A stretch of 36,077 bases of DNA, taken from positions 1-36,077 of IMG/VR virus record IMGVR_UViG_2851971941_000001; one strand, 5' to 3'. The translations under genes and the position numbers were made by a program. This document shows positions 2,067 through 27,539 of the stretch, piece after piece; within the stretch, counting starts at the first letter, position 1; each line of letters starts with the position of its first letter. The stretch comes from a virus (taxonomy: Duplodnaviria > Heunggongvirae > Uroviricota > Caudoviricetes). A model generated the notes under the pieces. The model did no database searches. It was not told the origin of the DNA and was given only the letters and a program-made list of their open reading frames with translations.

Positions 2067-3080
2067 TTACTCTACTGTGGACACTGTGTGGACACTCTCG
2101 GCCTCAGTACCACCTCTTAGCGGATTAAGAGAAATGGCGTCCTGAAGGTACTCTGGCGCAAAATGAGCGTAAACCATAGTTTGCTCAATCCGCGTGTGAC
2201 CTAGTATCCGTTGTAGCGTGATAATACTTCCTCCATTAATCATGAAATGAGTGGCAAAGCTGTGCCTTAGTGCATGTGTGGCTTGCCCCGTTGGCAAATC
2301 CGGTTTTATTGCTTTCATTGTTCGTCTGAAGCGAGGGTAATCAGCATCAGGGAATAAAAAACCTCGTTTGTTATCCGCGATCATTTTGGCAACAGCCTCT
2401 GAGATCGGGACGGTGCGTGGTTTGTTTGTTTTCGTTTTAACAAACGTGACGCGGTTATGGATGATATTTTCTGCTTTCAAACGAGCTGCTTCTCCCCAAC
2501 GTGCTCCTGTACTCAGGCAAAGAATCGCAATCTTTTTATTGTCGCCGTCAAGTGCTGCAAGCAGTAAGGCAATTTCTTCCTGTGTGAGATAGCCTGTTTC
2601 TGGTTTTTCCTCCTTAAGCCTCTTTGTCCCTCTGATAGGGTGCTCACCAAAGAATAACTCCGCTTCAATCAGGGCTGTAAACATGCCGCTAATACATGTT
2701 AAATCACGATTGATACTCGAAGGTTTAATACCCTGACTTCTTCGGGTGGCGCAGTACTGGCTGATAAGGGATTTCGTGATTTGAAATGCGCATGGGTCAT
2801 TCGTTATTTTTGTGAAGATTTCAATTTTTCCAAGATTAGATTTCCCATGCTCTTCGTGTTTACCCTTTAAATCCCACCAGATCTGTGTCAGTTCCGACAG
2901 ACGTCGTTTGTCTGTTGGTTTTGATAGCCATTCTTTATTGTGGTGGTTGTACAACGTGTATTTTTCGAAAGCGACAGCTTCGCTTTTCTTATCAAACTTC
3001 CTACGGATGCGTTTTCCGTTACGTCCAGTAGGGCGGATGTCCACTTCATATCGACCATCATCGAGTTTTTTGATTGCCAT
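2067..3080 (-). CDS. int: Tyrosine site-specific integrase, P2 Int-like (337 aa)
   Basis: 337 aa, the same length as P2 Int; C-terminal catalytic signatures HALRHSFATHF and LGHTRIEQTMVYAHF (R/H-x-x-R and catalytic Tyr); adjacent to att core. Confidence 0.9.
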   Translation of the reverse strand: MAIKKLDDGRYEVDIRPTGRNGKRIRRKFDKKSEAVAFEKYTLYNHHNKEWLSKPTDKRRLSELTQIWWDLKGKHEEHGKSNLGKIEIFTKITNDPCAFQITKSLISQYCATRRSQGIKPSSINRDLTCISGMFTALIEAELFFGEHPIRGTKRLKEEKPETGYLTQEEIALLLAALDGDNKKIAILCLSTGARWGEAARLKAENIIHNRVTFVKTKTNKPRTVPISEAVAKMIADNKRGFLFPDADYPRFRRTMKAIKPDLPTGQATHALRHSFATHFMINGGSIITLQRILGHTRIEQTMVYAHFAPEYLQDAISLNPLRGGTEAESVHTVSTVE

Positions 3081-3195
3081 CAGAAAACCCTCCGAGTGGT
3101 ACTTTTTTTTGCTACTACTAATCGCTTTTTTCGTGGTGGCTGAAATTTAGCCACCAATAGTAGGCACTTGTGATGAATATATTCACGATAAATTG

Positions 3196-3495
3196 TTAAC
3201 CAGTCTTTTGACCGGAGTGGGGCGACGTTGTTTCGTTTTGCCCAAAGTGTGCGAGAGCGGGCGCAATTTGCCCGGCTTCTGGAGCTACCTGATCAGTCAT
3301 GAACCACAAAGTATATTTAGTAAATCTAGGATGTTGTAAGACCTTCATTATGGCTTCAACTCCAGCGTTTTTTGACCGGCTCTCATAGCTCGAAAGTGAG
3401 CTGTAGGCTACACCAGTTAATTCACTGAATTCTTTACGGTTTAACCTTTCAGATTCACGGATTAGCTTCAACTTCTCCGAAACGTCTATTGACAT
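3196..3495 (-). CDS. C: Immunity repressor, P2 C-like (99 aa from internal ATG)
   Basis: ORF 3196..3567 is 123 aa, but the Met at codon 25 (MSIDVSEKLKLIRE) gives 99 aa, the P2 C length; helix-turn-helix-like segment KEFSELTGVAYSSLSSYE; divergent from cox. Confidence 0.8.
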   Translation of the reverse strand: MSIDVSEKLKLIRESERLNRKEFSELTGVAYSSLSSYESRSKNAGVEAIMKVLQHPRFTKYTLWFMTDQVAPEAGQIAPALAHFGQNETTSPHSGQKTG

Positions 3496-3616
3496 AATTA
3501 CTCCGATTGCGTAATTTCTTGCTGATGGTATGAAATGTTGTGCTTCTGGAGTTATCCTTTTAGGCAATAATTAGCCATTAGGAGCCATTAGAAGCACTAA
3601 GGGAGAATCGTAGCAG
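3496..3616. promoter_or_regulatory. Divergent immunity-switch region (Pc/Pe-type promoters) between C and cox, with tandem 9-bp direct repeats AGCCATTAG at 3573..3581 and 3583..3591
   Basis: 121-bp intergenic region between divergently transcribed repressor and cox; exact direct repeat at 10-bp periodicity seen in sequence; role as operator is inferred. Confidence 0.45.
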
Positions 3617-3892
3617 ATGAATAGACAGCTTGTAAGCGTGACTGATGCCGTGCCTTATCAGGAGTTTGCAAAACTCATTGGCAAAACTCCAAGAGCTGTA
3701 AGGGGCATGATTGAGAAAGGGAAATTACCAGTTATTGAGATTACTGACCCTCAGTCAGTATCGGGGCGTGCTGGTGAATATTGGGTATACCTTCCGGCAT
3801 GGAATAACGGACTAAAACTGGCTTATGAAAGCCGTCCTAAAGAGATTCGTGACGGCTGGTTGATGTGGTTAGGTCTCGGTGAACCACGTTAA
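3617..3892 (+). CDS. cox: Cox-like excisionase/transcriptional regulator (91 aa)
   Basis: 91 aa, the same length as P2 Cox; first gene of the early operon, divergent from C. Confidence 0.8.
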   Translation: MNRQLVSVTDAVPYQEFAKLIGKTPRAVRGMIEKGKLPVIEITDPQSVSGRAGEYWVYLPAWNNGLKLAYESRPKEIRDGWLMWLGLGEPR

Positions 3893-3902
3893 GGAGAACC
3901 GT

Positions 3903-4073
3903 ATGAATGAGCCTCGTTGTATTGCTCAGTTATTGCGTAACGAAAGCCCCAGGGCGATTGACTTCACCATCACCCACGGTAAGGGGCGTAAGGGAATCAT
4001 TATCCGCACCAAAAAACAGAGTCCGTTAAAAAAGGCTCTGACCTTTCTGAAAAGCCGGAGGGTCTGGAAATGA
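3903..4073 (+). CDS. Small early protein, P2 orf78-like
   Basis: In-frame ATG at 3903 with AAGGAG ribosome-binding site 8 bp upstream; 56 aa; position between cox and B. Confidence 0.55.
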   Translation: MNEPRCIAQLLRNESPRAIDFTITHGKGRKGIIIRTKKQSPLKKALTFLKSRRVWK

Positions 4074-4570
4074 CAGTGATGACGCTTAATCTCGTTGAAA
4101 AACAGCCAGCAGCTATGCGCCGGATAATTGGTAAGCATCTGGCCGTCCCTCGCTGGCAGGAGACATGCGATTATTATAATCAGATGATGGAACGCGAACG
4201 GCTAACGGTTTGCTTCCATGCGCAGTTAAAACAGCGTCACGCAACGATGCGTTTTGAAGAAATGAACGACGTCGAACGTGAACGGCTGGTTTGCGCAATT
4301 GATGAATTGCGTGGGGCATTCTCAAAACGCCGTCAGGTTGGCGCAAGTGAGTATGCATATATTAGTTTTTTAACAGTCAGTCAGCGTCGTACTTTATTTA
4401 TGCATGCCGGATTGACTGAAAAAGAATTCAACCAGCCATACTGGCGAATTAATGAAGAATCATGTTACTGGCGTGATGCTTTATTCCGTGCATTACGTGA
4501 ATTGTTCAGCCTGTTTGAGTATGCACCGACAATTCTGACGTCGGTAAAACCAGAGCAATATCTGCATTAA
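4070..4570 (+). CDS. B: Replication protein B-like (166 aa)
   Basis: 166 aa, the same length as P2 gpB; GGAG ribosome-binding site upstream; ATGA start/stop overlap with upstream ORF; synteny. Confidence 0.8.
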   Translation: MTVMTLNLVEKQPAAMRRIIGKHLAVPRWQETCDYYNQMMERERLTVCFHAQLKQRHATMRFEEMNDVERERLVCAIDELRGAFSKRRQVGASEYAYISFLTVSQRRTLFMHAGLTEKEFNQPYWRINEESCYWRDALFRALRELFSLFEYAPTILTSVKPEQYLH

Positions 4571-4633
4571 GTAATTAACCAGAGTTTTTAACGCACTTAA
4601 TTGTGCGGGGCTTCTTTTTGCCTGGAGAAAGTC

Positions 4634-4858
4634 ATGCATACAGTTTCTGAAAATCAGTGCGGTAAATACGCATTACTGCTGCAACAGGCCAGAACCGAAG
4701 CACAGGCCGACGCAGCGACACGCTTTTCTTCTCATCTTGACGCCATGATTCGCCATATCACAAAGGCGGAGTTATCCCGCGTGGAGATAGTCGAGCTGCT
4801 CAGTCAGGAGTCGGAAAAATTTCACAATATCGGATTGTCTCGCGGGGAGGTGCTTTGA
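4634..4858 (+). CDS. Small early protein, P2 orf80-like
   Basis: ATG at 4634 preceded by GGAG; 74 aa; synteny. Confidence 0.5.
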
Positions 4859-5157
4859 TGTCCTGTTCTCATTCAGTTGTATTACTGAATAACGCCTTAA
4901 AAATCGCCGTTATGAAAAATGGCGATTTGTCTCTTATTCAACTTTGCCTTGATAAAGAAAAACGCGACATAACTGAATCTGTTATCGCGATTTATCAGAA
5001 TGAATTAAACCTCCTGTCTGATGTGGTCAATTTACTTGTTAAACGCGCTGTATTCCACAAGCAAATTTCCTCAGTGGATGAACTGACAAAATTAACGACA
5101 GAGCTTGCCAGTTATTGCGCTGATGTATCCAGGAAACTTAACGATAAAAGGAGCTGA
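4858..5157 (+). CDS. Small early protein, P2 orf81-like
   Basis: ATG at 4858 overlaps upstream stop (ATGA); 99 aa; synteny. Confidence 0.5.
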   Translation: MSCSHSVVLLNNALKIAVMKNGDLSLIQLCLDKEKRDITESVIAIYQNELNLLSDVVNLLVKRAVFHKQISSVDELTKLTTELASYCADVSRKLNDKRS

Positions 5158-5159
5158 TA

Positions 5160-5384
5160 ATGCCGGACAACGTAGATTTTATTCAGGAACAACAGGCTGA
5201 ATTACTGGAGCGCCAGATTAACGCGGCAAGGGTAAAACATTGCGGTGCTTCTGCGCTGGTTTGCGAAGAGTGTGACGCGCCAATACCTGCTGCCCGTCGT
5301 GCGGCTTACCCGTCAGCCACGCGTTGTGTTTCCTGTCAGTCAGTCTTTGAAGCAAAAAACAAACATTACCGGAGAACGGCATGA
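5160..5384 (+). CDS. TraR/DksA-family C4 zinc-finger protein (P2 orf82-like)
   Basis: 74 aa with Cys pairs CEEC ... CVSC typical of phage TraR-like zinc fingers; AAAGGAG ribosome-binding site. Confidence 0.7.
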   Translation: MPDNVDFIQEQQAELLERQINAARVKHCGASALVCEECDAPIPAARRAAYPSATRCVSCQSVFEAKNKHYRRTA

Positions 5385-5656
5385 GTATTCGTATTGAAAT
5401 TGGCGAACGTTATGTCGTTACCAGTGACAGCTTTCAGTTTATTCTCCACGAGAAAAAGAGAGCGGAAAGCGGTAAAAACGCCGGTCAGGAATGGCTGGCG
5501 GTGGTTGGTTATTACCCGAAATTAAGCCAGCTCGTTTCCGGCCTGATGCATCACGATATTCTGACCGGAAGCGCAAAGTCTTTTGCTGATTTAAACGCGC
5601 AGGTTGAGCAACTCAGCAGGCGTTGTTCAGAGGCTTTTGGCTCATATGGCCGTTAA
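5381..5656 (+). CDS. Small early protein, P2 orf83-like
   Basis: 91 aa; ATGA overlap with upstream gene; synteny. Confidence 0.5.
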   Translation: MSIRIEIGERYVVTSDSFQFILHEKKRAESGKNAGQEWLAVVGYYPKLSQLVSGLMHHDILTGSAKSFADLNAQVEQLSRRCSEAFGSYGR

Positions 5657-7919
5657 AGCCTCCGGGCGTTTTGTCCCTCCGTCAGCATTTGCCGCAGGCA
5701 CCGGTAAGATGTTTACCGGTGCTTATGCATGGAACGCGCCACGCGAGGCTGTCGGGCGCGAAAGACCTCTTACACGTGATGAGATGCGTCAGGTGCAAGG
5801 TGTTTTATCCACGATTAACCGCCTGCCTTACTTTTTGCGCTCGCTGTTTACTTCACGCTATGACTACATCAGGCGCAATAAAAGCCCGGTGCACGGGTTT
5901 TATTTCCTCACATCCACTTTTCAGCGTCGTTTATGGCCGCGCATTGAGCGCGTGAATCAGCGCCATGAAATGAACACCGATGCGTCGTTGCTGTTTCTGG
6001 CAGAGCGCGACCAGTATGCGCGCCTGCCGGGAATGAATGACAAGGAGCTGAAAAAGTTTGCTGCCCGTATCTCATCGCAGCTTTTCATGATGTATGAGGA
6101 ACTCTGCGATGCCTGGGTGGATGCGCATGGCGAGAAAGAATCGCTGTTTACGGATGAGGCGCAGGCTCACCTCTATGGTCATGTTGCTGGCGCTGCACGT
6201 GCTTTCAATATTTCCCCTCTCTACTGGAAAAAATACCGTAAAGGACAGATGACCACGAGGCAGGCATATTCTGCCATTGCCCGTCTGTTTAACGATGAGT
6301 GGTGGACTCATCAGCTTAAAGGCCAGCGTATGCGCTGGCATGAGGCGTTACTGATAGCTGTCGGGGAGGTCAATAAAGACCGTTCTCCTTATGCCAGTAA
6401 ACATGCCATTCGGGATGTGCGTGCACGCCGCCAGGCAAATCTGGAATTTCTTAAATCGTGTGACCTTGAAAACAGGGAAACCGGCGAGCGCATCGACCTT
6501 ATCAGTAAGGTGATGGGCAGTATTTCTAATCCTGAAATTCGCCGGATGGAGCTGATGAACACCATCGCTGGAATTGAGCGTTACGCCGCCGCAGAGGGTG
6601 ATGTGGGGATGTTTATCACGCTGACCGCGCCGTCAAAGTATCACCCGACTCGTCAGGTCAGAAAAGGCGAAAGTAAAACCGTTCAGCTTAATCACGGCTG
6701 GAACGATGAGGCATTTAATCCAAAGGATGCGCAGCGTTATCTCTGCCGCATCTGGAGCCTGATGCGCACGGCATTCAAGGATAATGATTTACAGGTCTAC
6801 GGTTTGCGTGTCGTCGAGCCACACCACGACGGAACGCCGCACTGGCATATGATGCTTTTTTGTAATCCACGCCAGCGTAACCAGATTATCGAAATCATGC
6901 GTCGCTATGCGCTCAAAGAGGATGGTGACGAAAGAGGAGCCGCGCGAAACCGTTTTCAGGCAAAGCACCTTAACCGGGGCGGTGCTGCGGGATATATCGC
7001 GAAATACATTTCAAAAAATATCGACGGCTATGCACTGGATGGTCAGCTCGATAACGATACCGGTAAGCCGCTTAAAGATACTGCCGCGGCTGTTACCGCA
7101 TGGGCGTCAACGTGGCGCATCCCGCAATTTAAAACGGTTGGACTGCCGACAATGGGGGCTTACCGTGAACTACGCAAATTGCCTCGCGGCGTCAGTATTG
7201 CTGATGAGTTTGACGAACGCGTCGAGGCTGCTCGCGCTGCCGCAGACAGTGGTGATTTTGCGTTGTATATCAGCGCGCAGGGTGGGGCAAATGTCCCGCG
7301 CGATTGTCAGACTGTCAGGGTTGCCCGTAGCCCGTCGGATGACGTTAACGAGTACGAGGAAGAAGTCGAGAGAGTGGTCGGCATTTACGCGCCGCATCTC
7401 GGCGCGCGTCATATTCATATCACCAGAACGACGGACTGGCGCATTGTGCCGAAAGTTCCGGTCGTTGAGCCTTTGACTTTAAAAAGCGGCATCGCCGCGC
7501 CTCGGAGTCCTGTCAATAACTGTGGAAAGGTCACCGGTGGTGATACTTCGTTACCGGCTCCCACACCTTCTGAGCACGCCGCAGCAGTGCTTAATCTGGT
7601 TGATGACGGTGTTATCGAATGGAATGACCCGGAGGTCGTGAGGGCGCTCAGAGGTGCATTAAAACACGGACTGAGAACACCAAATCGTCAGCAAAGAAAC
7701 GGAAGCCCGTTAAAACCGCATGAAATAGCGCCATCAGCCAGGCTGACCCGGTCGGAACGATTGCAAATTACCCGTATCCGTGTAGACCTTGCTCAGAACG
7801 GTATCAGGCCGCAGCGATGGGAGCTTGAGGCGCTGGCGCGTGGTGCAATTGTGAACTATGGCGCAAAAGAATTTCATTACCATGTTCAGAAGGCGTGGGA
7901 AGCATTTTCGAGGTGGTAA
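5646..7919 (+). CDS. A: Rolling-circle replication initiator/endonuclease, P2 gpA-like
   Basis: ORF 5604..7919 (771 aa); probable start at internal Met MAVKASGRF; contains HxH-type motif PHWHMMLF and a two-tyrosine active-site motif YIAKYISK typical of rolling-circle Rep proteins; size close to P2 A. Confidence 0.85.
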   Translation: MAVKASGRFVPPSAFAAGTGKMFTGAYAWNAPREAVGRERPLTRDEMRQVQGVLSTINRLPYFLRSLFTSRYDYIRRNKSPVHGFYFLTSTFQRRLWPRIERVNQRHEMNTDASLLFLAERDQYARLPGMNDKELKKFAARISSQLFMMYEELCDAWVDAHGEKESLFTDEAQAHLYGHVAGAARAFNISPLYWKKYRKGQMTTRQAYSAIARLFNDEWWTHQLKGQRMRWHEALLIAVGEVNKDRSPYASKHAIRDVRARRQANLEFLKSCDLENRETGERIDLISKVMGSISNPEIRRMELMNTIAGIERYAAAEGDVGMFITLTAPSKYHPTRQVRKGESKTVQLNHGWNDEAFNPKDAQRYLCRIWSLMRTAFKDNDLQVYGLRVVEPHHDGTPHWHMMLFCNPRQRNQIIEIMRRYALKEDGDERGAARNRFQAKHLNRGGAAGYIAKYISKNIDGYALDGQLDNDTGKPLKDTAAAVTAWASTWRIPQFKTVGLPTMGAYRELRKLPRGVSIADEFDERVEAARAAADSGDFALYISAQGGANVPRDCQTVRVARSPSDDVNEYEEEVERVVGIYAPHLGARHIHITRTTDWRIVPKVPVVEPLTLKSGIAAPRSPVNNCGKVTGGDTSLPAPTPSEHAAAVLNLVDDGVIEWNDPEVVRALRGALKHGLRTPNRQQRNGSPLKPHEIAPSARLTRSERLQITRIRVDLAQNGIRPQRWELEALARGAIVNYGAKEFHYHVQKAWEAFSRW

Positions 7920-8029: not shown

Positions 8030-8950
8030 ATGGGCTTGGCGATGTATAACGATCCTTATAGTGACCCAAAAGCGTGGGAATCATATTTCAAAAATATTGT
8101 TTGGCTACATTATAAGCCTGCTAACTGTTGTGACTTGCCAGATGAGCATGGAGGCGACTTTGGGCTGGAGTGTTACACTCTGAGTGGTCATGTTTTTCAG
8201 TGTTACTTGCCTGAGCAGTCGAGTGATATTGATAAGCTTTATAAAGCGCAACAAAAAAAGATTTATACTGATATAAAAAAGTTTTCTCAGGATAACATTA
8301 AAGAATTAGAGGAGCTTTTTGGCACATTAAAAATTAGCCGCTGGATATTAGCTACACCATATAATAAATCGGCGAAATTAAGTCAATATTGCACAAAAAA
8401 ATCATTAAAAGTAAGAGAGTTAGGGATTTCTTACGTTGCTGATGATTTTCAAATAGTAGTGCAAACAGATCGAAATTATATAGAAGAAGCGTTCTTTCTT
8501 CGCAAAAATAACTATCAATTAAGCTTTAATATAAATGATGCGACGGCTGAGAATGCTGCTAACTTTATTAGTGAAAATACATCTTTTTTAGATAAGCTAA
8601 ATTTAAAATTACCTAAGATAAATGATGATGTATCTAGGCAGGGTTTATATAGAGAGTTTTTAATACAAAAATATCTTGATTATCAAAACTTGCTGGATGC
8701 TTTGAAGAGAGACTGGGTTGATATCTATGAAATTATCTATAACTGTGTTCAACATAGAGAACGTAATTTGGTAGGTCTCTTTCTTCTTACTTCATCAGAT
8801 GCGAAACCATCAGATATAATGAAAGATGAAATCGCTTTGTTAAAGAAATGTATTGAAGAGGAAGTTAGTACGCTTAAACAGGCTGACTTGGATAAGATAA
8901 CATGGGGAGTTATTTCTGATTGGCTTATAAGATGCCCTTTAGATTTTTAG
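8030..8950 (+). CDS. Cargo operon gene 1: 306-aa protein of unknown function, candidate effector of a defence system
   Basis: AT-rich ORF; first gene of a three-gene unit with 1-bp intergenic gaps; N-terminal Cys/His/acidic cluster CCDLPDEHGGDFGLECY...GHVFQCY; no confident family assignment. Confidence 0.6.
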   Translation: MGLAMYNDPYSDPKAWESYFKNIVWLHYKPANCCDLPDEHGGDFGLECYTLSGHVFQCYLPEQSSDIDKLYKAQQKKIYTDIKKFSQDNIKELEELFGTLKISRWILATPYNKSAKLSQYCTKKSLKVRELGISYVADDFQIVVQTDRNYIEEAFFLRKNNYQLSFNINDATAENAANFISENTSFLDKLNLKLPKINDDVSRQGLYREFLIQKYLDYQNLLDALKRDWVDIYEIIYNCVQHRERNLVGLFLLTSSDAKPSDIMKDEIALLKKCIEEEVSTLKQADLDKITWGVISDWLIRCPLDF

Positions 8951-8951
8951 A

Positions 8952-9428
8952 ATGGAAAAGCAAATGCATATAACGATAGATGAAATAATAGGAAGGCCGT
9001 TTACGTTTAATAAACGACCTGAACATTTGCCATGTGATATGAGACCATTGTGGCGTTGCAGTTTGTTGCTGATAATATTCCTTGTCACAGGGAGAGCTGG
9101 TTGCTGTTCTTTAAAAAAACTTCATTTAATTAATTGGATGTTAAAGTCAGAGAATAATGAAGCAATGTTTGAATTCTGGCTTTTAAACAAAGAAGGTTTA
9201 AAGCCTGAAGTAAGATTGGATCCAACTTTAGATAGAGCAATACAGCTATTATTAGCAGAGGATTTTATTTTGAGAAATGAACGAGCGTTCAAAATAAATG
9301 AAAAGGGGCTTAAGGTCGCTGAGAAATTGCTTTCTCTTGATGTGTTCAAAGAAGAAAGGTTGGTGCTAAATAAACATAAGGCTGGACTGTCCGAAACTAA
9401 CATTAATAAAATATTTCAGGTGGGTTAA
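8952..9428 (+). CDS. Cargo operon gene 2: 158-aa protein of unknown function
   Basis: ATG 1 nt after upstream stop and stop 1 nt before downstream ATG (translational coupling); AT-rich; no recognisable motif. Confidence 0.55.
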   Translation: MEKQMHITIDEIIGRPFTFNKRPEHLPCDMRPLWRCSLLLIIFLVTGRAGCCSLKKLHLINWMLKSENNEAMFEFWLLNKEGLKPEVRLDPTLDRAIQLLLAEDFILRNERAFKINEKGLKVAEKLLSLDVFKEERLVLNKHKAGLSETNINKIFQVG

Positions 9429-9429
9429 T

Positions 9430-11451
9430 ATGTCGTTGGAAATTATTTCATTGGAGTTAGTAGCAAATACTTCGGATGGGCGTTATGGTGTTAGTATACC
9501 TTTTTCAAATGGCTTGTTTTTATTAAGAGTTGAGAATTCTCATGGTAAATCAACTTGCATGAATGGGATTGCATATGCACTTGGGATGGAAAAGGCATTA
9601 GGTGTCGGTTCTGGAAAAATCCCATTCCCTCCATCTTTGACTAGAGCACTAACGACAAAAGATAATGTTGAAGTTAGTGTAATATCATCTTATGTTTTGC
9701 TAAAAATAAAGAATCATAAGGGAATAGAAGCATCTTTGAAAAGGAATATTATCGGTCACGATAATAATAATGTTATTTATATAGATGAGAAGAATAATGT
9801 AAAAAGTAAGAGTGGTACTTATTTTTTACATAGAGAGGGCGATACTGAAAGGGAACGTGGTTTCTATAAGTGGTTAGCTGATTTTATAGGTTGGAGTTTG
9901 CCAAATGTTCCAAACCATAATGGGAAGGACACTATTCTTTATCCATCCGTACTTTTCCCTGCATGGTATGTTGAGCAAAAAAAAGGATGGTCGTCAATTA
10001 TGGCGACTGTACCAACACAATTTGGAATTAAAGAGCCAAAGAAAAGAGCTCTAGAATTTTTAATGTCTCTTGATGTTAATGATAATATTTTATTGCGTAG
10101 TTCGTTAAGAAATGAACTTGATATTATTTATCATGATTGGAAGTTAATTAAACACAATGCAGAAGTTATTGCTTCTAAATTGTCGTCAGTTGTCACAGGG
10201 ATTCCTGAACAACCAGTGGCAAAATTTGATCATTATAAGATAGATTTGATTATTAAAAATGGTAGTGTCGTTAGATCTATTGTTGATGTTCGTAATGAAC
10301 TGGAAAAAGAGTTGCAAGAAATTAAGTTTGACACTCTTGGTGAGCAAGAAGAACAAACTTTACAATTATCAGTGGTTAAGTTATTAGGTCAAAAAAATGA
10401 TGAAATTAACTCTCTGGAATTAAAGATTAAAGAGATTTGTGAGCATAGAAGTTATATTCAATATCAAATTCAGGCGACCAAAAACAGATTGTATAATCTG
10501 TTGGAAGATAAAAGGAAGTATGAAGATTTAAAGAAAATATCATCTTCGGATGCGTATAAGTCAACAGATTTAATGTCAAATATTTGTCCGACTTGTGGTG
10601 CAAGTTATAATGATAATTTGCTAAGTTTTTCATCGCAAGAAAATCTGATGACATATGAAGATAGTTTGAACTTTATTAAAGAGCAAGTAAAAGCATTTGA
10701 GTTTGTTCTGTCGGATAGTGAAAAGCAATTAAAGCTTAAAGATGTTGAGAGGAGTGATTTAGAGGGGGAAATAGCCAAGATTAGAGTTGATATTAATGCA
10801 TTAAGGGAGTCAAAATATCCCTCAATGGTTGTTCAGGAGGAGTTTCTGAGACGTAAAATAAACATTGAGAATAAAATTAATGCCATTAACGATGGCATTA
10901 AAAGTATATTGGACATTAGACTGGAGTTGGATTCATTACACCGTAGATATAAAAAGCTTATCGCGAAAAGAAAAGGATTGCCAGATAATTTCTTGTCGCG
11001 TAATGATGCCGATAAGTTAAAATTTCTTAATAAAGAAGTCGTTGCACGATTAGAAAAATATAATTTTACAAGTTTTGATTCTAAACTTGTGTCAATATCA
11101 GAAGATAATTACTTACCTACTAGGGAAGGATATGATATAGGTTTTGACACATCAGCTAGTGATGGAATAAGAATCATTTGGGGTTATTTAATAAGTTTAT
11201 TTGTTGTTGGTTCTAAATTTCAAACAAATCACCCTGGATTGATTGTGTTTGATGAGCCTCGTCAACAAGAAGCAAATAAAGTAAGTTTTGCCGAGTTACT
11301 TAAAGATGCTGCAGAAACAACAAAAGGACAAGGGCAGATCATTTTTGCTACATCAGAAGATGAAAATGTCTTAAAAGAGGCATTAGAAGGGTATGACTAT
11401 ACAATGATATCCTTTGATAAGAACAATGGGAAATTGTTGAGGAAATTATAA
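9430..11451 (+). CDS. Cargo operon gene 3: SMC/Rad50-like ABC ATPase with coiled-coil and central CxxC hook-like motif (673 aa)
   Basis: Walker A-like ENSHGKST (nt 9544..9555 encode GKST); Q-loop-like YVEQKKG near residue 183; long E/K/L-rich heptad-like region about residues 290-540 with CPTC at residues 386-389 (nt 10585..10596); Walker B LIVFDEP (DE at nt 11251..11256) then IIFATSED; no TOPRIM or nuclease domain after the ATPase. Confidence 0.75.
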   Translation: MSLEIISLELVANTSDGRYGVSIPFSNGLFLLRVENSHGKSTCMNGIAYALGMEKALGVGSGKIPFPPSLTRALTTKDNVEVSVISSYVLLKIKNHKGIEASLKRNIIGHDNNNVIYIDEKNNVKSKSGTYFLHREGDTERERGFYKWLADFIGWSLPNVPNHNGKDTILYPSVLFPAWYVEQKKGWSSIMATVPTQFGIKEPKKRALEFLMSLDVNDNILLRSSLRNELDIIYHDWKLIKHNAEVIASKLSSVVTGIPEQPVAKFDHYKIDLIIKNGSVVRSIVDVRNELEKELQEIKFDTLGEQEEQTLQLSVVKLLGQKNDEINSLELKIKEICEHRSYIQYQIQATKNRLYNLLEDKRKYEDLKKISSSDAYKSTDLMSNICPTCGASYNDNLLSFSSQENLMTYEDSLNFIKEQVKAFEFVLSDSEKQLKLKDVERSDLEGEIAKIRVDINALRESKYPSMVVQEEFLRRKINIENKINAINDGIKSILDIRLELDSLHRRYKKLIAKRKGLPDNFLSRNDADKLKFLNKEVVARLEKYNFTSFDSKLVSISEDNYLPTREGYDIGFDTSASDGIRIIWGYLISLFVVGSKFQTNHPGLIVFDEPRQQEANKVSFAELLKDAAETTKGQGQIIFATSEDENVLKEALEGYDYTMISFDKNNGKLLRKL

Positions 11452-20067: not shown

Positions 20068-20497
20068 TGCCGTCACGGTGCTGAAAACTAACCCCGATAT
20101 GCTGCGGATATTCGTGGATAACGGGAGTATTGCCTCCACGCTGGCGGCGTCGCTGTCATTCGAAAAGCGTTACACGCTCAATGTGATTGTGACCGACTTT
20201 ACCGGTGATTTTGACCTGCTCATCGTGCCGGTGCTGGCGTGGCTGCGGGAAAATCAGCCCGACATCATGACCACCGACGAAGGCCAGAAAAAGGGCTTCA
20301 CGTTTTATGCGGACATCAACAATGACAGCAGCTTTGATATCAGCATCAGCCTGATGCTGACCGAGCGCACGCTGGTCAGTGAGGTTGGCGGCGCACTGCA
20401 TGTGAAAAATATCCCGGAACCTCCGCCGCCGGAGCCGGTCACCCGCCCGATGGAGCTTTATATCAATGGTGAACTGGTGAGCAAGTGGGATGAATGA
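20030..20497 (+). CDS. R: Tail completion protein R (155 aa)
   Basis: 155 aa, the same length as P2 gpR; synteny. Confidence 0.8.
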   Translation: MLKPDSLRRALTDAVTVLKTNPDMLRIFVDNGSIASTLAASLSFEKRYTLNVIVTDFTGDFDLLIVPVLAWLRENQPDIMTTDEGQKKGFTFYADINNDSSFDISISLMLTERTLVSEVGGALHVKNIPEPPPPEPVTRPMELYINGELVSKWDE

Positions 20498-20942
20498 GTT
20501 TAAGCGCTTTGAAGACCGTCTGACCGGACTGATTGAATCACTGTCACCGTCAGGGCGTCGGCGACTGAGCACCGAACTGGCGAAACGTCTGCGGCAGAGT
20601 CAGCAGCGCCGGGTGATGGCACAGAAAGCCCCGGACGGTACACCCTACGCGCCACGCCAGCAGCAGCGCGCCAGAAAAAAGACCGGTCGTGTTAAGCGAA
20701 AAATGTTTGCGAAACTTATCACCAGTCGTTTTTTGCATATCCGCGCCAGCCCGGAACAGGCATCAATGGAATTTTACGGCGGGAAGTCGCCGAAAATCGC
20801 CAGTGTGCATCAGTTCGGTCTGTCGGAAGAAACCCGGAAAGACGGTAAGAAAATTGATTATCCGGCGCGTACTCTGCTCGGCTTTACCGGTGAGGATGTG
20901 CAGATGATTGAAGAGATTATCCTGGCTCACCTTGAGCGTTAG
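20490..20942 (+). CDS. S: Tail completion protein S (150 aa)
   Basis: 150 aa, the same length as P2 gpS; overlaps end of R. Confidence 0.8.
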   Translation: MNEFKRFEDRLTGLIESLSPSGRRRLSTELAKRLRQSQQRRVMAQKAPDGTPYAPRQQQRARKKTGRVKRKMFAKLITSRFLHIRASPEQASMEFYGGKSPKIASVHQFGLSEETRKDGKKIDYPARTLLGFTGEDVQMIEEIILAHLER

Positions 20943-21013
20943 TTTTATCCAGGCAGAGGCTGATGCGCAATTAAACATTGAGCGGCCGTGCTGGTCGCTC
21001 AATGTTTAGAGGT

Positions 21014-21799
21014 TTATGAGTGGTTTTTATTTGATGCTTTGTATTCTAAAACCTTCTTATTGGCGTAAAGGAATTTTGCATATGACAGGAATATAAGCAG
21101 ACCTGAAATGAAATAGGTTAGGGATATTATTAATAATGTTTTTCTGTGGCTGTTATTATCTTTGATCTCCTGACTTAACCATTCGGAGTCCTCCTCGTTT
21201 AGCTGTAAGAGCTTATTGCAGGCGATTTCAGGAAGTGTGTCTTTTATAAATACGTTTTGCAGTCTCTTGCAATCGGCAAGGCTATAAGTTTTATTAAATT
21301 CAACTGCTTTATTTTTGAAGGATAAAAGAACTTTGTCACTATAAACATAGTACATCATGTTTTTATATGGTATACCTATGGCATCCCTTACTATAGCGGA
21401 TTGTTCATTGTGTATGTAACATGCGAAGATAATATAAAGAATTCCGGCCAGGACTGCACTCATTGTTTTTGTGATGCATAGCGGTTCTGTTATGTCTCCC
21501 CAGAAGCGAGTAAGGAAAAAATCCGATGTTTTTAGTTTTCCATCAATCAGCCCCTGCTGTATCATTCTCACATCTTCGATGCCTGATACATTGATTCCGT
21601 TAAGTGTTTTAAATAGTTGAATGTCGCGCCACTCGCGGTCCAGTCTTTTTAATTTTTTGTCTGAATATCCAAATTTGAAATAATGTGCAATAAGCCTCAT
21701 AAGGTTACTTTTACCAAAGCTAAAAAATGCTAATACTGCAAAGACCAAAAGATACAAAACGATTAGCTCCCACACATTAGTCACATTATAGCTGACCAT
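21014..21799 (-). CDS. Cargo gene at S-V junction: 261-aa multi-pass membrane protein of unknown function
   Basis: Strongly AT-rich, opposite strand to the flanking late operons (the position P2 uses for orf30); hydrophobic segments LIVLYLLVFAVLAFFSF, AVLAGILYIIFACYI and LLIISLTYFISGLLIFLSY. Confidence 0.6.
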   Translation of the reverse strand: MVSYNVTNVWELIVLYLLVFAVLAFFSFGKSNLMRLIAHYFKFGYSDKKLKRLDREWRDIQLFKTLNGINVSGIEDVRMIQQGLIDGKLKTSDFFLTRFWGDITEPLCITKTMSAVLAGILYIIFACYIHNEQSAIVRDAIGIPYKNMMYYVYSDKVLLSFKNKAVEFNKTYSLADCKRLQNVFIKDTLPEIACNKLLQLNEEDSEWLSQEIKDNNSHRKTLLIISLTYFISGLLIFLSYAKFLYANKKVLEYKASNKNHS

Positions 21800-21882
21800 T
21801 ACGCTCTCCTTGAATGTTGTCTGGTGGTTCTACAAATGAATCCAGATAGCATAACTTTTATATATTGTGCAATCTCACATGC

Positions 21883-22518
21883 ATGAACACTCTCGCAAAT
21901 ATTCAGGAACTCGCGCGCGCACTGCGCAACATGATCCGCACCGGCATTATCGTTGAAACCAACCTTAACGCCGGTCGCTGCCGTGTGCAGACCGGCGGCA
22001 TGTGCACCGACTGGCTTCAGTGGCTGACCCATCGCGCCGGACGTTCGCGCACATGGTGGGCACCTTCCGTGGGGGAACAGGTGCTGATTCTGGCCGTGGG
22101 CGGTGAACTCGACACGGCGTTCGTTCTGCCGGGGATTTATTCCGGCGATAACCCTGCGCCGTCTGCGTCGGCTGATGCCCTGCATATCCGTTTCCCTGAC
22201 GGGGCGGTGATTGAGTATGAACCCGAAACCAGTGCACTCACGGTAAGCGGAATTAAAACGGCCAGCGTGACGGCTTCTGATTCTGTTACTGCCACGGTAC
22301 CGGTGGTCACGGTGAAAGCGTCAACCCGTGTCACCCTGGACACACCAGAAGTGGTCTGCACTAACAAACTGACTACCGGCACGCTGGAAGTGCAGAAGGG
22401 CGGGACGATGCGCGGCAACATTGAACACACCGGCGGTGAACTCTCATCAAACGGTAAGGTACTGCATACCCACAAACACCCCGGCGACAGCGGCGGCACA
22501 ACCGGGAGTCCTTTATGA
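21883..22518 (+). CDS. V: Baseplate spike/assembly protein V (211 aa)
   Basis: ATG at 21883 (MNTLANIQE) gives 211 aa, the P2 gpV length; Gly/Thr-rich C-terminal region. Confidence 0.8.
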   Translation: MNTLANIQELARALRNMIRTGIIVETNLNAGRCRVQTGGMCTDWLQWLTHRAGRSRTWWAPSVGEQVLILAVGGELDTAFVLPGIYSGDNPAPSASADALHIRFPDGAVIEYEPETSALTVSGIKTASVTASDSVTATVPVVTVKASTRVTLDTPEVVCTNKLTTGTLEVQKGGTMRGNIEHTGGELSSNGKVLHTHKHPGDSGGTTGSPL

Positions 22519-24308: not shown

Positions 24309-26330
24309 ATGAGCACAAAATTCAAAACCGTTATCACCACTGCCGGTGCAGCAAAGCTGGCAGCGGCAACCGCACCGGGAGGGCGGAAGGTCAACATTAC
24401 CACGATGGCCGTCGGGGATGGCGGTGGTAAATTGCCTGTCCCGGATGCCGGACAGACCGGGCTTATCCACGAAGTCTGGCGACATGCGCTGAACAAAATC
24501 AGCCAGGACAAACGAAACAGTAATTATATTATCGCAGAGCTGGTTATTCCGCCGGAGGTGGGCGGTTTCTGGATGCGTGAGCTTGGCCTGTACGATGATG
24601 CGGGAACGTTAATTGCCGTGGCGAACATGGCCGAAAGTTATAAGCCAGCTCTTGCCGAAGGCTCAGGGCGTTCGCAGACCTGCCGCATGGTCATCATCGT
24701 CAGCAGTGTGGCCTCAGTGGAGCTGACCATTGACACCACAACGGTGATGGCGACGCAGGATTACGTTGATGACAAAATTGCAGAGCACGAACAGTCACGA
24801 CGTCACCCGGACGCCTCGCTGACCGCAAAAGGTTTTACTCAGTTAAGCAGTGCGACCAACAGCATGTCTGAAATGCTTGCCGCAACGCCAAAAGCCGTTA
24901 AGACGGTAATGGATGAAACGAACAAGAAAGCGCCATTAAACAGCCCTGTACTGACCGGAACGCCAACGACGCCAACTGCGCGACAGGGAACGAATAATAC
25001 TCAGATCGCAAACACGGCTTTCGTTATGGCCGCGATTGCCGCCCTTGTAGACTCGTCGCCTGACGCACTGAATACGCTGAACGAGCTGGCGGCGGCGCTG
25101 GGCAATGACCCGAATTTTGCTACCACCATGACTAATGCGCTTGCGGGTAAGCAACCGAAAGATGCTACCCTGACGGCGCTGGCGGGGCTTGCTACTGCGG
25201 CAGACAGGTTTCCGTATTTTACGGGGAATGATGTTGCCAGCCTGGCAACCCTGACAAAAGTCGGGCGGGATATTCTGGCTAAATCGACCGTTGCCGCCGT
25301 TATCGAATATCTCGGTTTACAGGAAACGGTAAACCGAGCCGGGAACGCCGTGCAAAAAAATGGCGATACCTTGTCCGGTGGACTTACTTTTGAAAACGAC
25401 TCAATCCTTGCCTGGATTCGAAATACTGACTGGGCGAAGATTGGATTTAAAAATGATGCCGATGGTGACACTGATTCATTCATGTGGTTTGAAACGGGGG
25501 ATAACGGCAATGAATATTTCAAATGGAGAAGCCGCCAGAGTACTACAACAAAAGACCTGATGAATCTTAAATGGGATGCTTTGTATGTTCTTGTCAATGC
25601 CATTGTAAATGGCGAAGTCATATCAAAATCAGCAAACGGCCTACGTATTGCTTATGGTAATTACGGATTCTTTATTCGTAATGATGGTTCAAATACATAC
25701 TTCATGTTGACAAACTCCGGTGACAACATGGGGACTTATAACGGATTAAGGCCATTATGGATTAATAACGCTACTGGCGCTGTTTCGATGGGGCGTGGCC
25801 TTAATGTTTCAGGGGAGACGCTTTCAGACCGTTTTGCTATTAACAGCAGTAATGGTATGTGGATTCAGATGCGCGATAACAACGCTATCTTTGGGAAAAA
25901 TATAGTTAACACTGATAGCGCTCAGGCGTTGCTTCGCCAGAATCACGCTGACCGCAAGTTCATGATAGGTGGACTGGGGAACAAGCAATTTGGCATCTAC
26001 ATGATTAATAACTCAAGGACAGCCAATGGCACCGATGGTCAGGCGTACATGGATAATAACGGTAACTGGCTTTGTGGCTCGCAAGTTATTCCCGGCAACT
26101 ATGGCAATTTTGATTCCAGATATGTGAAAGATGTTCGACTTGGTTCACAGCAATATTATGGAGTTAACAACTGGCAAACATGGAATTTCCAGTGCCCGTC
26201 AGGTCATGTATTGTCTGGTATTAATGTTCAGGATACAGGGTCCAACTCTGCCGATAATATAGCGGGCGTTTATTACAGACCCGTTCAAAAGTATATAAAT
26301 GGCACCTGGTATAATGTAGCGAGCGTTTAA
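24309..26330 (+). CDS. H: Tail fibre protein H (673 aa), with AT-rich C-terminal receptor-binding half
   Basis: 673 aa versus P2 gpH 669; N-terminal [20 protein letters not shown] is the conserved P2-type start; composition shifts to AT-rich from about nt 25370. Confidence 0.85.
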
Positions 26331-26331
26331 T

Positions 26332-26859
26332 ATGATGCACTTAAAGAACATAAAAGCGGGTAACGCTAAAACACTGGAACAGTATGAGTTAACAAAGAAA
26401 CACGGAGTTATCTGGCTTTACTCTGAGGACGGAAAAAACTGGTATGAGGAAGTGAAGAACTTTCAGCCAGACACAATAAAGATAGTTTACGATGAAAATA
26501 ATATTATTATCGCTATCACCAGAGATGCTTCAACGCTTAATCCTGAAGGTTTTAGCGTTGTTGAGGTTCCTGATATTACCTCCAACCGACGTGCTGACGA
26601 CTCAGGTAAATGGATGTTTAAGGATGGTGCTGTGGTTAAACGGATTTATACGGCAGATGAACAGCAACAACAGGCAGAATCACAAAAGGCAGCGTTACTT
26701 TCCGAAGCGGAAAGCGTTATTCAGCCACTGGAACGCGCTGTCAGGCTGAATATGGCGACGGATGAGGAACGTGCACGACTGGAGTCATGGGAACGCTACA
26801 GCGTTCTGGTCAGCCGTGTGGATCCTGTAAATCCTGAATGGCCGGAAATGCCGCAATAA
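26332..26859 (+). CDS. G: Tail fibre assembly chaperone G (175 aa)
   Basis: 175 aa, the same length as P2 gpG; immediately downstream of H; AT-rich like the H 3' half. Confidence 0.8.
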
Positions 26860-27029
26860 GTTGTATGAGCTCTGGTGTGGGCTTACATATCTATGGCACA
26901 GAGAAAAGTCTAATCTGACAGTCCGCTCTGTGCCAGGAACGGATGTTGCTAACAGCGTAGTGTGTTAATATATAAGGCGCAGGTCAGCTTATCTCTCATC
27001 AACTGTCTGAATTCTTGAGGAGCAGTAGT

Positions 27030-27539
27030 ATGGCAGTAATTCCTAGACGAAACGCACCAAGTAAAAAAATGATCTGGCAATACTGGATTGACAATGGAAT
27101 TCAAAGAGGTTTGGATGATACGCGCTATGATAATGCGTGTGATTTCAATGTATGTGTCTGCTGTGGCCGCGAATCCTCGAAATTGGAGAGGGCGCATATT
27201 ATCCCTCACTCATTAGGCGGAAGTAATGATGTCTCAAATTATATTCTGCTATGCAGTAAATGCCATAGAGAAAGCCCAGATATTGCTAATGAATCTGCGC
27301 TTATTGAATGGATGAATGAGCAACCTACTGAAATGGACAGCATGTTAAAACTAATCCAACAGGAAATGGATAAATATAATAAAGAAACTCAAATGGAAGT
27401 TGATGAGGTTCAGATTAAAGAGATTTTCAGTGATTTATTTAAAAGGGCAGGGACGCATGGTGGTAGATTTTCTGATGCAACCAAGGTGTATATTATTAGG
27501 GAGGCTTTGAAAAAAATATTTAGTCAGACTGCTTTATGA
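27030..27539 (+). CDS. Cargo gene at G-FI junction: HNH endonuclease-domain protein (169 aa)
   Basis: ORF 27015..27539 begins on TTG; likely ATG at 27030 with GAGGAG ribosome-binding site; HNH signature CVCCGR...ERAHIIPH...SNDVSN...LLCSKCH (paired Cys plus His-Asn-His); AT-rich. Confidence 0.75.
   Translation: MAVIPRRNAPSKKMIWQYWIDNGIQRGLDDTRYDNACDFNVCVCCGRESSKLERAHIIPHSLGGSNDVSNYILLCSKCHRESPDIANESALIEWMNEQPTEMDSMLKLIQQEMDKYNKETQMEVDEVQIKEIFSDLFKRAGTHGGRFSDATKVYIIREALKKIFSQTAL

Follow-up and report, generated by a model that had tools for sequence, protein, structure and literature searches.

Nearly all genes of the model phage P2 have been assigned a role, yet orf30 has stood as 'nonessential, function unknown' since the genome was deposited. 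Three regions of P2-like phages have been described as sites of foreign genes, namely orf30, Z and TO (PMC3091744). The first of these, between the tail genes S and V, holds orf30 in P2, nothing in WPhi and L-413C and another open reading frame (ORF) in PhiCTX (PMC2771037), and in R18C a 741-bp ORF stands in place of orf30 (PMC6823313). Among described prophage proteins of the cell envelope, SieA of P22 is an inner-membrane protein with three predicted transmembrane (TM) helices that is expressed from the prophage and blocks DNA injection (SieA paper). Here we analysed a stretch of 36,077 nucleotides (IMG/VR record IMGVR_UViG_2851971941_000001, positions 1 to 36,077; hereafter the window), which as a whole makes up a complete P2-like prophage. 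On its minus strand, at 21014–21799 between S and V, it carries a gene for a 261-residue predicted inner-membrane protein. It was found that this gene is an allele of P2 orf30, that it is cargo of a variable slot and that one protein family occupies the same slot in distant P2-like prophages.

Both orf30 and the variability of the site were known before, and the finding is in this respect a rediscovery. The link to the Pfam family DUF6216, the conservation of position across genera, the predicted topology with a periplasmic cysteine pair and the contrast in evolutionary rate with the neighbouring genes were not described in the literature searched.

Identity and coding evidence of orf30

The earlier note on this DNA had described an AT-rich, opposite-strand ORF of 261 residues between S and V with at least three hydrophobic segments, and had considered a structural role unlikely. 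The ORF listing, the G+C content of 35.5 % and the Pfam matches of the neighbours agree with this description, the hydrophobic segments number exactly three, and the P2 record in GenBank (AF063097) labels orf30 'nonessential'. The note had further placed the ORF at the position of the variable orf30 locus, which was correct for the position but stopped short of the identity, as the ORF is orf30 itself. P2 Orf30 (AAD03281.1, AF063097 9439–10224) equals the window protein in length, is likewise encoded antisense between S and V and in tblastn is 87 % identical to it in amino acids over all 261 residues (100 % coverage), the 13 % of residues that differ lying chiefly in the second TM helix and the periplasmic loop. 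The family phrog_2407, which is without annotated function, matches the window protein end to end (1–261 of 261, 8.4e-141). The 2.2 kb of DNA around orf30 is 95–98 % identical to Peduovirus genomes including P2, and the closest deposited alleles, those of Yersinia phages vB_YpM_115 and vB_YpM_117 and of Peduovirus OU784750, encode a homologue with 99 % identity. By both sequence and position, the window ORF is therefore an allele of P2 orf30 and a member of the P2 Orf30 orthologous group.

The gene starts with ATG and ends with TAA. Its G+C content compares with 55–62 % in the flanking tail genes and 50 % over the whole window, and the G+C profile falls from 0.55–0.62 in the neighbours to 0.34–0.40 across orf30. 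At this base composition the chance of 261 stop-free codons is ~3e-9, and the longest open run in any of the other five frames does not exceed 60 codons. A Shine–Dalgarno box, AAGGAG, lies 6 nt upstream of the ATG (21806–21811, minus strand). A word-indexed protein search with the window protein returned only alleles at least 81 % identical to it. An exhaustive HMMER search over 1.8 billion cluster representatives gave 40 matches, of which ~25 were full-length (250–270 residues) at 22–35 % identity. The family alignment of 24 sequences (A1) is collinear, with three TM helices and lengths of ~250–270 residues, and a Shine–Dalgarno box (AAGGAG, GGAGG or AAGGAA) is found at equal distance in all distant members.

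Evolutionary rates were taken from 26 P2-type loci, each compared with the window. The median rate of non-synonymous substitution (dN) was 0.060 for orf30, with a ratio to the synonymous rate (dN/dS) of 0.45; for R, S, V, W and J the median dN was 0–0.013 and dN/dS 0–0.13. This contrast indicates that orf30 is under purifying selection yet evolves several times faster than its neighbours. Within the gene, the two soluble loops were the most constrained (dN/dS 0.34 and 0.20) and the helices nearly neutral (0.5–1.4). Likewise, most E. coli orf30 alleles are 80–95 % identical in DNA, compared with 95–99 % for the surrounding stretch. With dN/dS below 1, a conserved family and a confident AlphaFold2 model (below), orf30 is a real gene.

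Predicted topology and the wider family

A Kyte–Doolittle scan (19-residue window, threshold 1.5) placed the three hydrophobic segments at residues ~9–29 (TM1), ~108–130 (TM2) and ~221–241 (TM3), and all three are conserved across the family alignment. That they might be an artefact of AT-rich coding was also considered, and was rejected in view of the family conservation, the dN/dS values and the confident AlphaFold2 model. Orientation was judged from the mean counts of lysine plus arginine around the helices over 24 members. These were 0.04 at the N-terminus (out), 2.6 after TM1 and 2.25 before TM2 (both in), 1.7 after TM2 (out) and 3.3 after TM3 (in), while the flank before TM3 was net acidic (out). 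The protein is accordingly predicted to lie in the inner membrane with its N-terminus out, loop 1 in the cytoplasm, loop 2 in the periplasm and its C-terminus in.

Loop 1 (residues 31–107) is predicted to form a cytoplasmic helical domain and is the best-conserved region of the protein, at 2.33 bits per column compared with 1.5–1.9 elsewhere. It contains the motif D-x-Q-L-F-[KR]-x-x-N-G-I-N-V, and Q61, G68, D76 and G87 are nearly or fully invariant. Loop 2 (residues 131–220) is predicted to form a periplasmic alpha/beta domain. Every family member has exactly two cysteines in this loop, Cys177 and Cys194 in the window protein, and their predicted location would fit a periplasmic disulfide. AlphaFold2 with the family alignment gave a model with a predicted local distance difference test score (pLDDT) of 86 and a predicted template modelling score (pTM) of 0.74. 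In the model, TM1 is a long helix and loop 1 forms a small helical domain; TM2 is followed in loop 2 by a sheet of four strands with two helices, and TM3 is part of one long helix.

The window protein gave no match to a named family in Pfam or NCBIfam; in Pfam there was none even at E≤1, below the gathering threshold of DUF6216 (PF19723, proteobacterial membrane proteins of ~270 residues). Ten of the 24 family members, however, did match DUF6216. P0022 of Sodalis sp. RH24, which is among these ten, is encoded by the antisense gene between S and V of a P2-like prophage; it scores 28.9 bits against a gathering threshold of 27.3, covers profile positions 10–265 of 270 and matches the window protein at 1.6e-10. 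Length, three-helix architecture and a collinear alignment are shared by the window protein and DUF6216. By this transitive link through P0022, sequence comparison places the window protein as a divergent relative of DUF6216, not as a member by the Pfam rule. No paper giving a function to DUF6216 was found in the literature search.

Further searches extended the family only slightly. A protein search with the family profile added four distant proteins, a search with P0022 found P0022 only, single-protein scans for related loci with P0017 and P0030 found nothing, and a search of plasmids gave no match. When distant members were compared with deposited phage genomes by tblastn, only 21 records were returned, all of P2-type orf30; the distant types are thus known only from prophages.

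The S–V slot and its alleles

The slot is bordered on the left by the gene for the tail completion protein gpS, the last of the P2 O late operon (20490–20942, plus strand; Pfam Phage_tail_S 4e-43), with gpR further left (Pfam). Its right border is the Ogr/activator-binding dyad of the late promoter P_V (21814–21841, plus strand), which was mapped from the P2 annotation (10239–10266) at an offset of +11575 with no indels. Beyond the dyad lies the gene for the baseplate spike protein gpV, the first of the V operon (21883–22518, plus strand; Pfam Phage_base_V 5e-20 and Phage_spike 1e-28, and the P2 annotation). In the P2 record (AF063097) the dyad site is annotated as 'activator binding site; activation of pV promoter' directly upstream of the orf30 start, and the V operon begins at V. 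The dyad sequence, TGTTGTCTGGTGGTTCTACAA at 21815–21835, is inside the DNA that encodes the 5' leader of orf30. Its GTTGT core does not vary between alleles with orf30, with other cargo or with none, and the order dyad, Shine–Dalgarno box, ATG is common to all distant orf30 relatives.

Convergent S and orf30 are separated by a 71-bp spacer containing a hairpin with a 17-bp stem (20971–21009, from RNA folding). Its folding energy is −29.2 kcal/mol on the plus strand (z −4.0) and −22.3 kcal/mol on the minus strand (z −3.5), and no clear T-run was read after it on either strand. Because it is stable on both strands, the hairpin could end both convergent transcripts, and it is the likely terminator for both the S side and orf30; the homologous element of P2 is annotated between S and orf30 as 'putative rho-independent terminator for O operon'. 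As orf30 is located between this terminator and the P_V activator site, it lies between two late transcription units and not inside one, and the suggestion of the earlier note that it interrupts the late tail operon does not hold.

When the orf30 allele, an empty one and two with other cargo were aligned, similarity was seen to end right after the TAG stop of S and to resume at the GTTGT of the dyad. The inserted cassette is therefore at ~20943–21821 (~880 bp, in agreement with the 874-bp length difference in BLAST), and consists of hairpin terminator, gene and ribosome-binding site in one self-contained, AT-rich unit. Of the signals of variable-slot cargo, the hairpin terminator is present, while a consensus promoter scan gave no match, and candidates picked by hand upstream of orf30 were too weak for a promoter to be claimed. 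The promoter of orf30 would have to overlap the AT-rich P_V core region (21842–21882), which by allele comparison is found in the orf30 allele alone, or the beginning of V. In this core, TATATT on the plus strand (21861–66) overlaps TATAAA on the minus strand (21862–57). An Ogr-dependent divergent promoter using the same dyad was also considered and was rejected, as transcription starting 55 bp from the centre of the dyad would begin within the ORF.

The P_V core at 21842–21894 differed wholly between alleles, being AT-rich (…TTTTATATATTGTGCAATCTCAC…) in orf30-bearing phages and a GC-rich hairpin (GCCGCCGGTATGACCCGGCGGC) in the empty and L002 alleles. It was also observed that the P2 record has the V operon begin with the very first base of the start codon of V, by which the V mRNA would be leaderless.

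The earlier note had proposed comparing the S–V junction across P2-like prophages to see whether the locus varies, and such a comparison shows that it does. The junction was present in 1578 of 5426 complete E. coli genomes and held orf30 in 463 of the 1578 (~8.5 % of the complete genomes); most junctions were empty, and few held other, unrelated AT-rich genes. In these 463 carriers orf30 was always chromosomal, and in 460 it was essentially full length. The contents were read in an evenly spaced sample of 60 E. coli junction records, of which 18 had orf30, 36 had an empty junction (66 bp in allele L003), two had an ORF of 347 residues and two an ORF of 246 residues. The 347-residue ORF (locus L001, E. 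coli L725, 1146–2189, minus strand) has two C-terminal TM helices and replaces orf30; the 246-residue ORF (L002) is on the plus strand, carries a CxxC...H...CxxC arrangement and has only a sub-threshold match to HNH_5. Both are of ~35 % G+C. With divergent base composition, presence/absence polymorphism and alternative genes at one site, orf30 fits the description of a moron or variable-slot cargo gene. In E. coli NZ_CP173472.1 (4457655–4461191; H56, H165), IS2, an IS3-family element, splits the S–V stretch in two; orf30 appears disrupted there, with a single-piece match only from its base 363 on.

The same slot is used well outside E. coli. At ~23 distant loci (L007–L025, L072, L073, L076 and L077) an orf30-family gene is antisense and adjoins V, and also adjoins S wherever the contig extends that far. 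Compared with the window, the flanking R, V and J of these loci are mostly 61–85 % identical, S is 44–54 % identical and the orf30-family protein 25–41 %. Named hosts of orf30-family loci include E. coli, Enterobacter, Yersinia frederiksenii and Sodalis, and the genes have 31–37 % G+C whatever the G+C content of their flanks (46–63 %). One protein family thus occupies the same S–V slot of distant P2-like prophages, and the cargo of the slot is not random.

There were exceptions to this arrangement. In L074 and L075, which represent a more distant P2-like phage, the orf30-family gene is upstream of R beside a GNAT acetyltransferase gene, and the S–V gap holds an antisense ORF of 441 residues (1743–3068 in L074, plus strand of that locus) that matches the PADLOC defence candidate PDC-S59 (1.7e-196). 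In L005 the gene is in a decayed prophage beside a gpR fragment. In L071 (Leclercia adecarboxylata NZ_JALKTL010000005.1, 2298–6762) there are no P2 tail genes nearby; the neighbours of the orf30-family gene are what is left of a P4-like satellite, namely Psu (6e-75), a fragment of a Pox_D5 primase and an HNH gene, and the stretch abuts the chromosomal xdh genes. The contexts found for the family were P2-like prophages or their remnants and one P4-like remnant, with no plasmid or ordinary chromosomal context among them.

Several features of neighbouring genes at these loci were also observed. The gpS genes of L002 and L007–L025 fall into divergent allele classes with 44–58 % amino acid identity to the S of the window, beside R, V and J that are mostly 61–85 % identical and 96–100 % identical in L002. 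Divergence of gpS next to conserved R, V and J suggests that the end of the O operon at the cargo slot is itself a hot zone of recombination or divergence. In L024, an ORF of 273 residues with two N-terminal hydrophobic segments (6997–7818, minus strand) is found just downstream of S alongside the orf30-family gene; neither this ORF nor the 347-residue ORF of L001 had a match in Pfam or PADLOC. In L021, two co-oriented genes (4941–5875, plus strand) lie between gpV and the orf30-family gene. The first encodes a protein of 180 residues that contains HExxH (MHEFVHIWQH) and has no match in Pfam, and the second a 133-residue lipoprotein-like protein with an LTGC lipobox (DUF7480, 2e-21). From its sequence this pair beside the spike gene looks like a toxin/immunity pair.

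Possible function and relation to known systems

The earlier note had related such single membrane proteins of prophages to superinfection exclusion or abortive infection, which is plausible for Orf30. The reading that we favour, at a probability of roughly 40 %, is that Orf30 acts as a single protein in the lysogen, as an envelope or exclusion factor, and hinders other phages at the inner membrane. The gene cannot be transcribed from P_O or P_V because it is oriented against both late operons. Most probably it would be read from a weak promoter of its own when Ogr is absent, in the lysogen or early in infection; expression in the lysogen is probable because late in infection the leader DNA is occupied by the Ogr/P_V complex. 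The protein would then sit in the inner membrane with its short N-terminus outside, its conserved helical domain of ~77 residues in the cytoplasm, a disulfide-stapled alpha/beta domain of ~90 residues facing the periplasm and a basic C-terminal tail facing inward. The periplasmic domain might meet an incoming apparatus while the conserved cytoplasmic domain contacts a conserved partner. Genome delivery by competing phages, or their productive infection, would thereby be hindered in the manner of P22 SieA. Also counted in favour of exclusion were the Lamassu genes and the HNH nuclease gene at the two classical hotspots of this prophage (below), and PDC-S59 in the S–V slot of L074.

A number of observations weigh against this proposal. 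Conservation is highest in the predicted cytoplasmic domain, as would be expected of a sensor or effector no less than of a protein that blocks in the periplasm, and that a single family has stayed in this slot for so long could reflect a function in the biology of P2 itself. The classical exclusion phenotypes of P2 map to old, tin and fun and are not known to map to orf30, and lysogens of P2 are plated on by P2 vir mutants, from which it follows that orf30 does not exclude P2 itself. Scanning the minus strand ahead of the gene for the consensus also gave no sigma-70-like site. The window protein had no match in PADLOC-DB v2 at E≤10, its fold had none among solved structures (PDB) or predicted viral structures (BFVD), and no similarity in sequence or fold was found to SieA, HK97 gp15, T4 Imm or PHROG-annotated proteins. 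In addition, the literature searched gave no functional report or phage-exclusion phenotype for orf30, and none of Rousset 2022, the 2026 NAR survey and the iLund4u preprint counts the S–V site among the defence hotspots.

The conservation of loop 1 and its motif would also favour an abortive-infection effector encoded by a single gene, in which the cytoplasmic domain would sense a phage product or perturbation and the helices, probably as an oligomer, would depolarise the inner membrane so that the cell dies before the phage matures. A small, AT-rich and probably weakly expressed membrane protein in a prophage cargo slot would suit such an effector; however, the cassette includes no partner or antitoxin gene, no Abi family or PADLOC match was found, and a purely cytoplasmic trigger would have no need of a structured periplasmic domain with a cysteine pair. 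PADLOC on the 24 relatives gave only noise, with three scattered single-member matches at E≥0.007. We regard this mechanism as unlikely. Similarly low odds are given to a lysogenic-conversion factor of the envelope that has nothing to do with phages, acting for example in resistance to tailocins, colicins or envelope stress or on a host membrane complex. The moron-like anatomy of orf30, its presence/absence polymorphism and the predicted place of its product in the inner membrane would all agree with such a factor, as would the lack of an exclusion phenotype mapped to orf30 in the literature searched. Yet the family was found only in P2-like prophages or remnants and one P4-like remnant, and types that differ so strongly in one fixed slot resemble the genes of phage–phage arms races.

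An accessory role in the lytic cycle of P2 itself, in lysis timing, in protection from superinfection during growth (like T4 Imm and Sp) or in DNA entry or exit, was judged about as improbable. One family has kept its slot beside the spike gene V while tail proteins diverged to as little as ~61 % (R, V and J) and ~44 % (S), a fidelity that suggests a family evolving together with the phage and not cargo taken up at random; the overlap of the leader with the P_V control region would also allow expression to be negatively coupled to late transcription. These points are countered by the annotation of orf30 as nonessential in P2, by its orientation antisense to both late operons and by its absence from ~60–70 % of E. 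coli P2-like prophages and from the plaque-forming WPhi and L-413C (PMC2771037). By far the least probable explanation is that orf30 serves no function, being either a selfish insert or a remnant in decay at an intergenic site that tolerates it. Although orf30 is dispensable, often absent and split by IS2 in one genome, with dN/dS above that of neighbouring genes, it is intact and full length in 460 of 463 E. coli carriers. Its dN/dS is 0.45 overall and 0.2–0.34 in the loops, the Shine–Dalgarno box, three TM helices, cysteine pair and motifs are kept down to 22 % identity across genera, and the AlphaFold2 model is confident. The conservation data largely refute this last explanation.

A wider version of the exclusion proposal is more tentative than the proposal itself. 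In it, Orf30 and DUF6216 may form an unrecognised class of three-pass inner-membrane immunity factors acting by exclusion or abortive infection, and the S–V site may be a third, overlooked anti-phage slot, also used by PDC-S59, HNH-like and other membrane proteins, with occasional shuttling to P4-like satellites. With its membership in a conserved family, its predicted topology and its conserved residues, this long-neglected ORF becomes a candidate for a new factor of phage–phage interference at the envelope that can be tested directly. If anti-phage action proved true, a third cargo hotspot of P2/P4 would have been overlooked by recent surveys of defence hotspots; if not, orf30 would be an ordinary moron at a well-known locus.

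The two classical hotspots of the window are both filled. At the old/tin (TO) hotspot between A and Q (8030–11451, plus strand) there are three AT-rich ORFs of 306, 158 and 673 residues with 31–35 % G+C, which match LmuA (1e-29), LmuC (2.5e-23) and LmuB (1e-98) of the Lamassu system in PADLOC. At the Z/fun hotspot between G and FI (27015–27539, plus strand), an AT-rich ORF of 174 residues (~37 % G+C) encodes an HNH endonuclease (Pfam HNH_5 1e-10, with weak PADLOC matches to mREase_IV and DpdF). Two other stretches of low G+C content were observed, at 1201–1800 to the left of the integrase gene (34 % G+C, with an ORF at 1300–1632 on the plus strand) and at 25250–27000, comprising the 3' part of the tail-fibre gene H and G (39–46 % G+C).

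On the searches made here, which detected no homology, Orf30 is not assignable to the SieA type or to any PADLOC system. P22 SieA and Orf30 are alike in being prophage-borne single proteins with three predicted TM helices. They differ in that SieA has 162–164 residues, lacks the two soluble domains of ~80–90 residues found in Orf30 and has no detectable sequence relationship to it; the inner-membrane location of SieA has been demonstrated, whereas that of Orf30 is predicted. HK97 gp15, T4 Imm and the lactococcal Sie2009-type proteins, named in the SieA paper, are likewise small phage proteins of the cytoplasmic membrane that act alone at DNA entry, but they are smaller than Orf30, have one or two TM helices and show no homology to it. 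Within P2, the closest parallels are old, tin and Z/fun, which like orf30 are AT-rich, non-essential and polymorphic for presence and absence at fixed sites between conserved modules. Compared with the two described P2 hotspots, the S–V site is usually empty, and when it is filled one family dominates in place of a wide repertoire.

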